Positions 13,902 to 54,628 of a stretch of DNA of 64,000 nucleotides are shown here, piece by piece. The stretch spans positions 32,302,001 to 32,366,000 of the forward strand of contig OZ024750.1 of assembly GCA_964016885.1 (NCBI GenBank), written 5' to 3'. A program made the translations under genes and the position numbers. The notes beneath the pieces were generated by a model. That model did not search any database. It was not told where the DNA came from and saw nothing but the letters and a program-made list of their open reading frames with translations. The DNA comes from Eledone cirrhosa. Lineage: Eukaryota. Numbering within the stretch: position 1 is the first letter of the stretch; each line of letters starts with the position of its first letter.

Positions 13902-13949
13902 ATGCAAATTAGGCTGCTCAGCCGTTAATATGCATAAGGAAAGTATATA
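13902..13949 (+). promoter_or_regulatory. Octamer + PSE-like + TATA block (putative snRNA-type promoter), family B
   Basis: ATGCAAATTAGGCTGCTCAGCCGTTAATATGCATAAGGAAAGTATATA; aligns with the family A block. Function is inferred. Confidence 0.5.
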
Positions 13950-13971
13950 CTTTCAGACGTCAACCATCTGG

Positions 13972-14030
13972 CAGGAATGTATACGATGCTGACGATAGTT
14001 AATAAGCTTGAAACTGGTACATCGTTCCTG
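13972..14030 (+). ncRNA. Type I hammerhead ribozyme (family B)
   Basis: CAGGAA-tgtat-ACGATG|CTGACGA|t-AGTT-aata-AGCT-t|GAA-AC-tg-GT-A|CATCGT-TCCTG; GUA site. Confidence 0.75.
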
Positions 14031-14703
14031 TGTCAGTGTTGAACAAAAAGGTGACGTGGTTGCCTAAACACTGTATGGCGTAATCCGGGCTGTTTGTTTG
14101 TTTACAAACAAACCTAGCATTATATTAAATGTTCGGTAAACCGATACGTGCATATATATATATATGTGTGCATGTATATATATATATATACATACTAGTG
14201 TACGTCTGTATACATATATATATGTATGTAGGTGTACATACATACATACTTACATTTAAGTAAGTGCCGTACTTAGAGTGAGAAATGAAATTTCGTTTCA
14301 TTCTATTCTATATATATATATATATATATATATATATATATATATATATATATATATATATAGGAGTAATTGTATGTGCGGGAGGGCATGATAATGATGT
14401 AATACATTTATTGGAAACAAAGAATTTCCCAATCGTAACTCTATTTCCTCCATTTCCGATTTTCGACGATAGTGGTGAATAGAACACCAAAATGTAAATA
14501 TATACAATACTTAGAAACTACTGAAGAATAAGATTTAGGGGGGTTTTGAAAAAATAAATAAACCTTTTCGTTCATTAAAGACCTAATAATAATTATTTCA
14601 CATTAGACTTCAAAATGATTCCTAAACCATTAACTATAGTAAAATTAATGTCCACAGTTATATGTACTTCTTATTTAGAAAATAGTATTATTATTGTTCT
14701 TCT

Positions 14704-14890
14704 GGGCGGTGGATTGGCAGTATCGGTAGAGGGTCAGACGCCATACTTTCCAGCATAGTTACGTCCCTTTACGATCTGAGTTCAAATCCCACCGAGGTTG
14801 ACTTTGCCTTTCATACTTACGGGGTCGATAAAATAAAGTACCAGTAATGCACTGGGTCATTGCTGGCCTTGTGCCTAAAGTAGAAACAAT
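14704..14890 (+). mobile_element. tRNA-derived SINE, family 1 (full length)
   Basis: A/B boxes and conserved body. Confidence 0.85.
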
Positions 14891-16365
14891 TATTGTTCTT
14901 CTAATTCCAGTCAACTCGTATCTAATAATATCCCTCGACAATAAGCGTTCATCATCTCCATAAATACCCCCATTATATGTAGGAATTCTTTGTATTAAAA
15001 ATCCTTGATATATATTTCTGCAAGATCACGCATTGAGCTCCGTCATAGGAAGACAAATGAAACGAGTTTATCTGAATATATATGTATCGTTGATGAAAAT
15101 GATGTATAATCAACAAGCACGACTGAATGTTTAAGTTCATTTCGTATTTCATCTGTGCTATCAGGGTGTTATCCCACCATGGGAAACATAAGCAAGTGAT
15201 TTATATCAAACCTCTAGGTTTCTCAATATGTTGTGAGTGTAAATTGTTGGATATATATAATTTTCGGTGGCCCTCTGAGCCGAGCTTTGTAAGTATTAAT
15301 GTAAAGAGTATTTTCCAACTGTGGAAAGTTCCGCCAATGTTTGAAACGCTGATTTGCTATGCTAAGAAGACACCATTGCCTGATAAGATCTAACAGTTTT
15401 AGCGACGATGAGGATTTTAGTTGCTTAATCAAATATTTGAGATGCACAAAAGAGAAATGAATGTATATTAAATTAAGATAGAACACAGACAACGCTACTC
15501 CATCATGAGTTTGTGTTCTATCTCACTACGTGACCCCTTCGTAAACTGACTTCTTGTGTAACCTCGAATTGGCCAATACCGTGTGAGTAACGTTAGAGAA
15601 TGATACCGAATGAACATATGTTATATATATTATACCGTTGTACGGTGTATGTGTATGTTTGTCGCAAGCCTAGAAACCGGCACCTTTAGAACGACAGTGT
15701 CTAATATTTCTTCCGAACCAGTTTTCATCCACTCCATCGTTATTCTCGCTATTAGAACTGCAGTGAAACTTTAGAAGCTTGCAATCAACGACATTATTAA
15801 CCATCAATTGTAATATATAATGAAATATATAAAGCATATATGATGAATTGGCATATTATGTCTCTGTAAAGACAAGCAACTAAGGTAAATATTTGAACGC
15901 TAAAGAGACTCTACTAAAAATAAAAGGAAACTACAATATGAAGTTATAATACATTTAGAGAGTGCTTTTGATGTTACAATCCCATTAGCTTCGCAACATT
16001 ATATCGCTTAAAAAATATTCCATTCACTAACCATTAGCTTAATCACCTTATAGACACAAACACGTATATTTTGTATCAAACGGGAAGCCTAATGATATTC
16101 TAGCGAAAAACCACTTCAGGAAATACGTAAGTAATACGTTTCTAACAAACTACATACTAGTAACTATCAAAGTAATAGTTGCTAAACAAAGTTTACATTT
16201 TCGAATGTTGACATGAAAGTTGAAAACTCTTTAATAATTATTTGGTTGGTCAAAGTTCCGCAACTCTTTTAAGAAGTTTAACCATGCACCTACAACTTGT
16301 TACAATACGTTCCCATTTCATCCCCATACATTAAATATGTGAACAATTACACATACATCAATCAT

Positions 16366-17302
16366 AGTCACACACACACATACACACATTATATATATAT
16401 ATATATATATATATATATATAATATATATATATGTATATAATGTGTGTATGTGTGACTATGACTGATGTATGTGTAATTGTTTACATACATACATACATA
16501 TACATACATACATACATATATATATATATATACATATATATATATATATATATATATATATATATATACATACATACATATATATACATACATATATATA
16601 CATACATATATATACAACACATACATATATATACATACATACATACATATACATATATATACATACATACATATATATACATACATATACATACACATAC
16701 ATATATATATATACATACATACATATATATATACATACATACATACATACACATACATATACATACATACATATACATACATATATATACATACATACAT
16801 ATACATACATATATATATATACATATATATATACATACATATATATATATACATATATATATACATACATACATATACATACATATACATACATATATAT
16901 ATACATACATATACATACATATACATACATATATATATACATACATATACATACATATACATACATATATATATACATACATACATATACATATATATAT
17001 ACATACATACATATACATATATATATATACATACATATACATACATATATATATATATGCATATATATATATACATATATATATATACATACACATATAT
17101 ACATACATACATACATATACATACATACACATACATACACATATATATATATACATACACATATATATATATATACATGCATATATGCATGCATACATAC
17201 CTATATACATATATATATATATATATATATACAGACACACACATATATATATACGCACACAAACACACACACACACACACACACACACACACACACACAC
17301 AC
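16366..17302. repeat. Compound (TA)/(TACA)/(CA) microsatellite
   Basis: Direct reading; source of the YI/HT/CV ORFs. Confidence 0.95.
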
Positions 17303-53205: not shown

Positions 53206-53626
53206 TACCTATCTTCCGGCCTTTCTAGAGAATCGTAAAAGCACATATCGTTATATGCTTTTTCTATGAAAATTAGTAGTGGGCAGACTAATTTGCATAG
53301 AGCGTGAGTACGTACCGGTTCAACGGAGACGATAAAAACAAATAACGAAACGAAATTAAATTTCGTTTCGTTTGTAACTCACTTTTGTATGACTGACGCT
53401 TAAACAATTAAGTTAAAAATGTACATCCACATATGTATACTGAAATACTAGTATGCATATGAATACACACACGTATACATATGTAGATGTACCGAGTTTT
53501 TCACTGGTCACTTTACTGTGAGTGTCCAGCTATTCTGTATGTAAACACACAGACAAACCGGTTTTTAGAGTCATACTGGTTTTTGAGGAAACACCTTTCC
53601 TCTATACTCCAGAAAGCCAGACAAGG

Positions 53627-53671
53627 AATATTGAACTAGTTTCGTTGTTGTTACAACTCATCAGCAATATT
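53627..53671 (-). ncRNA. Type I HHR (family A)
   Basis: Identical copy. Confidence 0.85.
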
Positions 53672-54069
53672 TACCTATCTTCCGGCCTTTCTAGAGAATC
53701 GTAAAAGCACATATCGTTATATGCTTTTTCTATGAACGGAGACGATAAAAACATTCTGGAGAATAGAGGAAAGGTGTTTCCTCAAAAACCAGTATGACTC
53801 TAAAAACCGGTTTGTCTGTGTGTTTACATACAGAATAGCTGGACACTCACAGTAAAGTGACCAGTGAAAAACTCGGTACATCTACATATGTATACGTGTG
53901 TGTATTCATATGCATACTAGTATTTCAGTATACATATGTGGATGTACATTTTTAACTTAATTGTTTAAGCGTCAGTCATACAAAAGTGAGTTACAAACGA
54001 AACGAAATTTAATTTCGTTTCGTTATTTGTTTTTATCGTCTCCGTTGAACCGGTACGTACTCACGCTCT

Positions 54070-54117
54070 ATGCAAATTAGTCTGCCCACTACTAATTTTC
54101 ATAGAAAAAGCATATAA
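54070..54117 (+). promoter_or_regulatory. Octamer + PSE-like + TATA-like block, family A (one per complete unit)
   Basis: ATGCAAATTAGTCTGCCCACTACTAATTTTCATAGAAAAAGCATATAA. Function is inferred. Confidence 0.5.
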
Positions 54118-54162
54118 CGATATGTGCTTTTACGATTCTCTAGAAAGGCCGGAAGATAGGTA

Positions 54163-54207
54163 AATATTGCTGATGAGTTGTAACAACAACGAAACTAGTT
54201 CAATATT
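54163..54207 (+). ncRNA. Type I HHR (family A)
   Basis: AATATTG|CTGATGA|GTTGT-aaca-ACAAC|GAA-AC-ta-GT-T|CAATATT. Perfect core, 7-bp helix I, 5-bp helix II, palindromic ACTAGT helix III, GUU site. Confidence 0.88.
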
Positions 54208-54628
54208 CCTTGTCTGGCTTTCTGGAGAATAGAGGAAAGGTGTTTCCTCAAAAACCAGTATGACTCTAAAAACCGGTTTGTCTGTGTGTTTACATACAGA
54301 ATAGCTGGACACTCACAGTAAAGTGACCAGTGAAAAACTCGGTACATCTACATATGTATACGTGTGTGTATTCATATGCATACTAGTATTTCAGTATACA
54401 TATGTGGATGTACATTTTTAACTTAATTGTTTAAGCGTCAGTCATACAAAAGTGAGTTACAAACGAAACGAAATTTAATTTCGTTTCGTTATTTGTTTTT
54501 ATCGTCTCCGTTGAACCGGTACGTACTCACGCTCTATGCAAATTAGTCTGCCCACTACTAATTTTCATAGAAAAAGCATATAACGATATGTGCTTTTACG
54601 ATTCTCTAGAAAGGCCGGAAGATAGGTA

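Follow-up and report, generated by a model that had tools for sequence, protein, structure and literature searches.

What switches on the short self-cleaving repeats of this locus? The question arises in a 64,000-nucleotide stretch of the Eledone cirrhosa genome (assembly GCA_964016885.1, contig OZ024750.1, positions 32,302,001 to 32,366,000 of the forward strand), which is part of a 3.0-Gb animal assembly and is referred to here as the window. Four hammerhead ribozyme families, A, B, C and D, occur inside the window. In families A and B the ribozyme is preceded by a short module, a box followed by a TATA-like sequence, and a first-pass annotation had proposed that each unit thereby carries its own small nuclear RNA (snRNA)-type promoter, possibly one for RNA polymerase III (Pol III). 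By our analysis the A and B units are retrozymes without long terminal repeats (non-LTR retrozymes) that have the insertion signatures of Penelope-like elements. On sequence evidence, putative promoter modules of snRNA type, matched to those of the host, precede the ribozyme in at least seven retrozyme families comprising tens of thousands of copies. It is highly probable that the module is a working promoter of these units, and each copy probably turns on its own transcription. That it drives their transcription through RNA polymerase II (Pol II), in the manner of a U3 or snRNA gene, is the reading favored here, with about an even chance of being correct.

Hammerheads were located by a motif scan, Rfam searches and folding against shuffled sequences. 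Family A forms a forward array (53754..54968, +; 2.6 units of 466 bp, stopping at unit position ~433 against (TA)n) and an inverted array (52006..53736, -; 3.7 units, stopping at unit position ~361 against (TA)n) with boxes at 53298, 52832 and 52366 on the minus strand. Its unit contains a type I hammerhead with a long outer stem (54135..54230, +; core 54170-54200) and a predicted cut after GUU at 54200. The best Rfam model, HH9, matched this ribozyme with an E value of 2.3e-7 and 37.7 bits, under the gathering cut-off of 52, and nothing in the window matched at gathering score. The fold is far better than that of shuffled sequences (z -4.9), stem II shows a compensatory change among copies, and the A arrays contain no open reading frame (ORF) of 100 amino acids. 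Family B is represented at locus L055 by an arm of 1.2 units (13778..14315, +) beside a 5'-truncated inverted arm (13568..13777, -). Its type I hammerhead (13968..14035, +; core 13989-14019) has a GUA triplet and a U-U mismatch at the base of stem II; this copy fits the motif scan, and its fold is not better than shuffles (z 0.3). Two older B units with a period of 430 bp lie at approximately 35710..36570 (+), with boxes at 35864 and 36294 and damaged ribozymes that the motif scan did not pick up. Unit lengths are 466 bp in A, 430-446 bp in B and 311 bp in C. One type I hammerhead per unit, short non-coding tandem units and many copies are the features of non-LTR retrozymes.

The module has the same layout in A and B. 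In A, the box TATGCAAATTAG (54069..54080, +; second copy at 54535-54546) is followed by CCACT (54086..54090, +), a weak match to a Pol II snRNA motif with its YCA 25 nt before the TATA, and by the TATA-like CATATAA (54111..54117, +), 41 nt from the box. Taking the host TATA at -30 as a guide, the predicted start is ~54141. In B (13901..13950, +) the box at 13901-13912 is followed by TCAGC at 13918-13922 and by TATATAC at 13944-13950, 42 nt from the box. The strings that had been reported at 54070 and 13902 are present as described, the latter also at 35864 and 36294, and the similar spacing (octamer to ATATA, 42 nt in A and 43 nt in B) and common upstream motifs were likewise found. The TATA had been placed about 25-35 nt before the extended stem; in A as in B it begins 24 nt ahead of the outer stem, at the lower limit of that range. 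The statement that A and B share little elsewhere was not borne out, as they have in common a 74-nt block at 77% identity and a 92-nt upstream promoter block at 71%. A and B are related, so little can be concluded from their agreement by itself.

Host small-RNA genes were collected by an Rfam search for comparison with the module. A box, TATGCAAAT(T/G)AG, lies 76-79 nt upstream of the gene in seven host promoters, namely three types of U6 promoter, the top-ranked of 8 U6atac loci, the only MRP gene and the two tRNA-Sec genes. The box takes the form ATG(C/G)(A/T)AAT(T/G)AG at -76 to -79, with a TATA at -30/-31 and a distance of 46-48 nt between the two, and the A box is identical to that of U6 and tRNA-Sec. 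No box was found in 16 U1, U2, U4, U5 and U12 promoters, where AATTA occurs near -90, YCAGT between -54 and -58, and a TATA-like box around -30. It was also absent from 12 lower-ranked U6 copies and from the three SRP genes inspected. Host U3 genes carry a degenerate version (1-3 mismatches) 40-42 nt before GTATATA in the four types scored, and three of five further U3 loci were without a promoter. A distal motif, TTAYYTCCCTT, occurs at -257 to -288 in 17 of 28 host promoters of both classes. Since the seven host genes carry the box at -76 to -79, the octamer is a proximal element and not, as first supposed, a distal enhancer-like element ahead of a separate proximal sequence element. The module of A and B has the box of the U6 class, TATG(C/G)(A/T)AAT(T/G)AG, together with its TATA.

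The match is quantitative. With a matrix built only from host genes and the spacing left free at 40-49 nt, five A and three B sites took ranks 1-8 of 127,876 window positions. These sites scored 25.4-27.7 bits, compared with 17.5 for the next window site, 23.6-37.2 for host genes in leave-one-out scoring and at most 10.2 for Pol II promoters. When the spacing was fixed at 46-48 nt, A and B dropped to 12.1-17.3 bits. The box and TATA together are non-random; the bare octamer occurs 11 times against 5.6 expected, a count reached by 5 of 100 shuffles. The module is also well conserved. Among 29 B loci gathered by DNA similarity, the rate of departure from the commonest letter was 0.3% in the box and 0.5% in the TATA, the best-kept part of the copies, compared with 3.4% in the body. 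Variants shared between loci fell in none of 49 module columns and in 17 of 230 others (p 0.034). In contigs of sequencing runs from three organisms there was one variant row in 50 module positions versus 20 in 185 body positions (p 0.037). The corresponding profile for A carries a bias, since the module itself served to find the A loci.

Copies across the genome were counted with sequence patterns and controls. The exact A 35-mer occurs 5,043 times (control 0), a further pattern 19,448 times (control 1; mostly B among the 100 matches listed) and the exact C 24-mer 12,645 times. A pattern of box, CTGANGA and GAAA, with A and typical B left out, gave 1,576 matches (reversed control 0) and revealed families E and F, and a pattern with U6 spacing gave 178 matches against 1 in the control and revealed families G and H, which are decayed. 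In E-H the search pattern itself set the box, but for E and F it left the TATA free. An alignment of A, B, E, F, G and H has 34 invariant columns, mostly in the box, the TATA and the ribozyme core, and BLAST found no similarity of E, F or G to A. A metagenome scan gave 20 matches, none with a hammerhead fold. The distance from box to TATA is 41 nt in A, 42 in B, 43 in E, 42 in F, 47 in G and 48 in H. Thus, the 46-48 nt of the host U6 class is found only in G and H, and not in A, B, E or F. The orientation of the module and its distance to the ribozyme are fixed, with 85-108 nt from box to CTGA.

Family C has a promoter-like region of the other host class. Its array (55433..56028, +; 311 bp units, hammerheads at 55522-55552 and 55833-55863) lies beside an inverted arm (approximately 54993..55432, -; hammerhead 55152-55122). 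The C ribozyme region resembles that of A (73% over 62 nt). C has no box, and it ranked only 3,366 of 127,810 in a Pol II model requiring AATTA. It does have AACCAGT, as in two U5 genes, with TATAAG 27 nt later (55753..55787, +), a putative core promoter of U1/U2/U5 type. The 14-mer GATTACTTCCCTTG (55553..55566, +) matches the host distal element, forms the 3' arm of ribozyme stem I and lies 257 nt before the predicted start of the next unit, within the host range of -257 to -288. In a model designed afterwards, with the distal element replacing AATTA, C took ranks 1-2 of 127,400 at 33.5 bits, and host genes with the element scored 31-43. Outside C, a YCAG+TATA score at the C level was reached at only 5 of 127,880 positions, and the distal element occurred at 1 of 127,972. 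Two diverged relatives of C keep AA(C/T)CAGTTCCTG and ATTCTATAAG while spacer and stems drift; the distal element is not kept in these two. A TCAGT-type pattern gave 19 genome matches against 8 in the control, mostly chance, with two C relatives and one E relative among the 5 matches inspected. A perfect isolated match to the host distal element also lies at 63926-63939, and no small-RNA gene was seen by eye in the next 600 nt.

The ends of the insertions indicate how the units spread. At 28 A loci, 17 of 43 array ends fall at unit positions 358-365 and 23 at 431-433, nearly all against (TA)n, and 12 of the 15 two-armed loci have one end of each kind. For B, 20 of 56 ends (29 loci) fall at 342-356 and 24 at 402-409. 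Both A clusters lie in a 'tail' region (54415..54502, +) that also contains two T5 runs. The 5' ends are scattered and do not pile up at either the predicted start or the cut site. Within arrays, units differ by 0-5 letters, compared with a median of 14 between loci. Tandem and inverted copies that are inserted in (TA)n and have a tail at one of their ends are characteristic of non-autonomous Penelope-like elements. Of the 43 A arms, 38 cross the cut site, 36 hold the whole box and 26 exceed one unit. Arms that cross the cut site and hold the box require a template longer than a start-to-terminator transcript, either a circle or an uncut multimer; in the available account of cited in vitro work, uncut RNA is the main substrate. 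A short palindrome common to A (53998-54024) and B (13834-13851), ACGAAA...TTTCGT and ATGAAATTTCGTTTCAT, sits between the two insertion-end clusters and is a candidate recognition hairpin for reverse transcriptase (RT).

The following cycle is proposed. The promoter of one unit would fire ~30 nt after its TATA. Transcription would then continue across the entire unit, past the following promoter and its T5 runs, as far as the following ribozyme. A monomer freed by two cuts would likely circularise, with the promoter sequence inside. The RT/endonuclease of an autonomous Penelope-like element would nick (TA)n DNA, and the RT would prime at two fixed tail sites ~60-70 nt apart and copy round the template, leaving an inverted pair of tandem arrays. 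Tandem arrangement or circular permutation would allow a promoter upstream of the start site to be inherited through RNA.

Pol II is favored as the polymerase for several reasons. First, the 41-43 nt spacing of A, B, E and F corresponds to that of host U3, where the octamer-like box lies 40-42 nt before GTATATA, and A and B are 5 nt shorter than the U6 class with which they share the 11-nt box and G-TATATA. U3 is generally transcribed by Pol II in animals, and a 4-5 nt shift separates Pol II from Pol III genes in frog and fly. Insect snRNA promoters are described, in the available text of PMC1761439, as having strict spacing and as differing between polymerases at a few positions. Secondly, a YCA lies 25-27 nt before the TATA in all six box families (A, B, E-H) and in none of the seven U6-class genes (Fisher p 0.0006; p 0.004 when matrix scores are compared; background 0.071); this test was post hoc, the YCA having been seen in B first. 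Its position also agrees with U3. The full YCAGT, 24-31 nt before the TATA-like box, is found in C and H, and only YCA in A, B, E, F and G. Third, a T5 and two T4 runs occur in each full A unit examined. Spreading needs read-through of the whole unit, so a T5 in every full A unit was counted for Pol II. Also counted on the Pol II side is that no snRNA 3' box was found in A, B, C or E (best 4.9 bits versus 8.6-20.4 in 15 of 16 host genes). Two further points are the putative U1/U5-type promoter of C, a family whose ribozyme region is shared with A, and the Pol II transcription reported for newt satellite 2. Spacer similarity to U3 is not among these reasons: it was seen in A (p 0.004-0.009), F (0.02-0.04) and E (0.008-0.11) and not in B, which matched 7SK (p 0.005), and with 66 uncorrected comparisons it is only a hint.

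Several observations weigh against the favored explanation. The exact 11-mer is found only in host genes of the Pol III class; the U3 version has 1-3 mismatches. Scores from the full 8-mer YCAG matrix are low for A (-3.4), B (-0.1) and G (-0.3). In one U3 type the YCAG site lies at 22 nt. The model requiring AATTA at about -90 gives low scores to A, B and C, no distal element was found in A, B or E, and A and B, which lack both AATTA and the distal element, fail both Pol II models. Host U3 genes themselves have no Pol II 3' box and a T-rich 3' flank, which makes U3 a soft anchor for Pol II. In addition, the six families may share ancestry and so would not be six independent tests, and a comparison with the terminal repeat of a single autonomous element revealed no homology.

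The strongest alternative, considered possible but less probable than Pol II, is that the same element follows the same cycle with the module acting as a type 3 Pol III promoter. Most transcripts would then stop at the T5 runs (A unit position 346 or 427), and only leaky read-through would give a full monomer able to spread. The exact 11-mer and G-TATATA of U6, U6atac, MRP and tRNA-Sec agree with this, as do the U6 spacing of G and H (47-48 nt) and the position of one A end cluster at the second T5, and U3 may itself be a Pol III gene in this animal. However, A and B reach only 12.1-17.3 bits with the host spacing enforced, and a genome-wide promoter pattern identified no host gene at 41-43 nt (38 matches: U6, U6atac, tRNA-Sec, repeat copies and two unassigned). 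The first-pass annotation had described A as free of T4 from about 54145, with B alike, and indeed there is no T4 in 54145-54414, there are three A5 runs and a T5 begins at 54415. Across families the stretch without T4 after the predicted start is 213-339 nt in A, B and E versus 77 nt in C, which would suit Pol III, but its length is within chance (shuffle P 0.117 in A, 0.25-0.34 in B and 0.099 in E; combined 0.085). As for the transcript end predicted at about 54419, 5 of 12 A loci lack the first T5, and insertion ends form no cluster at unit 346-350. The insertion ends fit internal priming of Penelope type without a terminator, and the 409 cluster of B lies at a T3. Thus, of the original proposal, the match to host small-RNA promoters stands, the spacing is not that of U6, and its fallback of Pol II or terminator read-through is the likelier case on the evidence here.

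An unlikely explanation is that the module survives from the flank of a small-RNA gene that was once captured, or is a binding site retained for some other step, with the RNA supplied by host read-through. A and B are related, so part of the common module is inheritance, and the tail in B (1.1%; 0.9-1.1% overall, among the best-kept parts) is about as well kept as the module. On the other hand, box and TATA persist across families without other BLAST similarity, in fixed orientation and at a fixed distance from CTGA, and a host promoter of another type is retained at the equivalent place in C and its diverged relatives.

A broader reading combines the families, and is offered only tentatively. 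Retrozymes in this lineage may have taken over both host small-RNA promoter classes and tuned them for read-through, with a U6-class box in Pol II geometry in the octamer families and a 14-mer of dual role in C, and captured external snRNA promoters might be a general engine of animal retrozymes. If so, the C 14-mer would serve at the RNA level as a ribozyme stem and at the DNA level as the distal enhancer of the unit that follows. This double role would mean that the 310-bp period is set by promoter geometry and that only tandem copies fire.

Family D, a truncated and inverted Penelope-like element (3450-8260; hammerheads 3535-, 7701+ and 8236-; ORF 5845-6501(-)), carries its hammerhead in a terminal repeat at 3.5-8.2 kb. 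The family is young, with 150 matches at 95-100% and frames of 844-873 amino acids in the full-length copies (L316-L320). Its protein had no Pfam or PDB match. YRDD and YIG motifs are present, the sense strand is very T-rich and the 3' end loosely resembles that of A. The box was found in none of the six D loci fetched, and D shows no similarity to A-G beyond AT-rich sequence; for this reason D is only a candidate helper. At one locus (L143:174-1522, -) a family E unit ends just past the ribozyme and runs into a broken RT and GIY-YIG frame of a different Penelope-like family. A further reading, very improbable, takes the units for terminal repeats (pLTRs) that have come loose from some other autonomous Penelope-like element, whose mRNA would be made from this promoter. 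Retrozymes do resemble such pLTRs in frogs (available text of bioRxiv 10.64898/2026.07.22.740005), and this one E copy abuts an RT frame, but the junction was seen once and the one autonomous family compared, the young family D, has neither box nor similarity.

Other features were noted in the host genes and the window. The RNase P RNA gene and a 7SK candidate (L169, L216) have TCAGT 32-33 nt before the TATA, 5-6 nt further upstream than Pol II snRNA genes, and end in T8-T9, which suggests that Pol III genes of this genome use upstream promoters of two different types. Host U3 genes (L248-L255, L322-L323) have T-rich 3' flanks and an octamer-like box, without the 3' box common to U1, U2, U4, U5 and U12. 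A subset of tandem U6 genes (C19 array; L007, L008, L010-L013) has an insertion resembling a short interspersed element between box and TATA that duplicates part of the TATA region. Many U6 and U6atac copies are promoterless (L115-L126, L131-L137), several beside (TA)n and other repeats, and appear to be retrocopies. A 92-bp tandem repeat at 58822-59996 (12.8 copies, 96% alike) had no hammerhead in the scan. Another abundant repeat (L390:1500-1700; window 37249-37298) has CTGA(T/A)GA ... GAAA with a long stem II and is possibly a further hammerhead family.

Families A-C resemble known systems in several respects. The promoter of the schistosome Sm-alpha repeats is internal and of tRNA type; that found here is of upstream snRNA type. 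Sm-alpha repeats are otherwise comparable, being hammerhead SINE-like repeats transcribed by Pol III in which a promoter precedes the hammerhead in tandem copies, and single copies cannot regenerate the promoter but tandem copies can (available text of PMC6765202). Animal non-LTR retrozymes (Cervera and de la Pena 2020, PMC7229834; Li et al. 2026, bioRxiv 10.64898/2026.07.22.740005) are, as far as the available text goes, likewise short non-coding tandem units with one type I hammerhead and a short stem III, they co-occur with Penelope-like elements, and one axolotl family has the U-U mismatch at the base of stem II seen in B and C. The present units differ in that external promoters of two kinds, both matched to host genes, are mapped in them together with fixed insertion ends of Penelope type; the available text of these two reports names no promoter driving retrozymes. 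Newt satellite 2 is a hammerhead tandem repeat with its own snRNA-type promoter transcribed by Pol II (Coats et al. 1994, as cited in the available text of PMC2220036 and PMC6765202). It belongs to another phylum and is one family compared with at least seven here, and it differs in that the A/B box is a host U6-class and U3 box and the C distal element is also a ribozyme stem. From the host U6-class and U3 promoters, A and B differ in having no distal element, and from U3 in their exact box. In the available texts on Penelope-like elements, the tandem and inverted layout is described (PMC8557442) and the 'tail' is traced to two internal RT start sites (PMC11167929). The A and B units share with these elements the tandem and inverted 5'-truncated copies, the (TA)n targets and a tail from two RT start sites, and differ in having no ORF and a tail of ~60-70 nt versus 30-40 nt. 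Our search found no literature on snRNA-type promoters in mollusc retrozymes, subscription journals being mostly outside it, and the families may already be catalogued in Repbase or Dfam.

Heavy transcription of retrozymes has been reported for all tissues (available text of PMC7229834), and what drives it is otherwise known only for newt satellite 2 and the schistosome repeats. With a putative promoter located base by base against host genes, start site, polymerase and read-through become direct experiments, and the U6-, U3- and U1-type promoter motifs defined for this animal are useful for guide-RNA expression. The insertion ends link the way retrozymes insert to the mechanism with two start sites described for Penelope-like RTs, and the proposed cycle shows how an upstream promoter could travel through an RNA intermediate. 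A self-carried promoter would explain how such repeats get transcribed.

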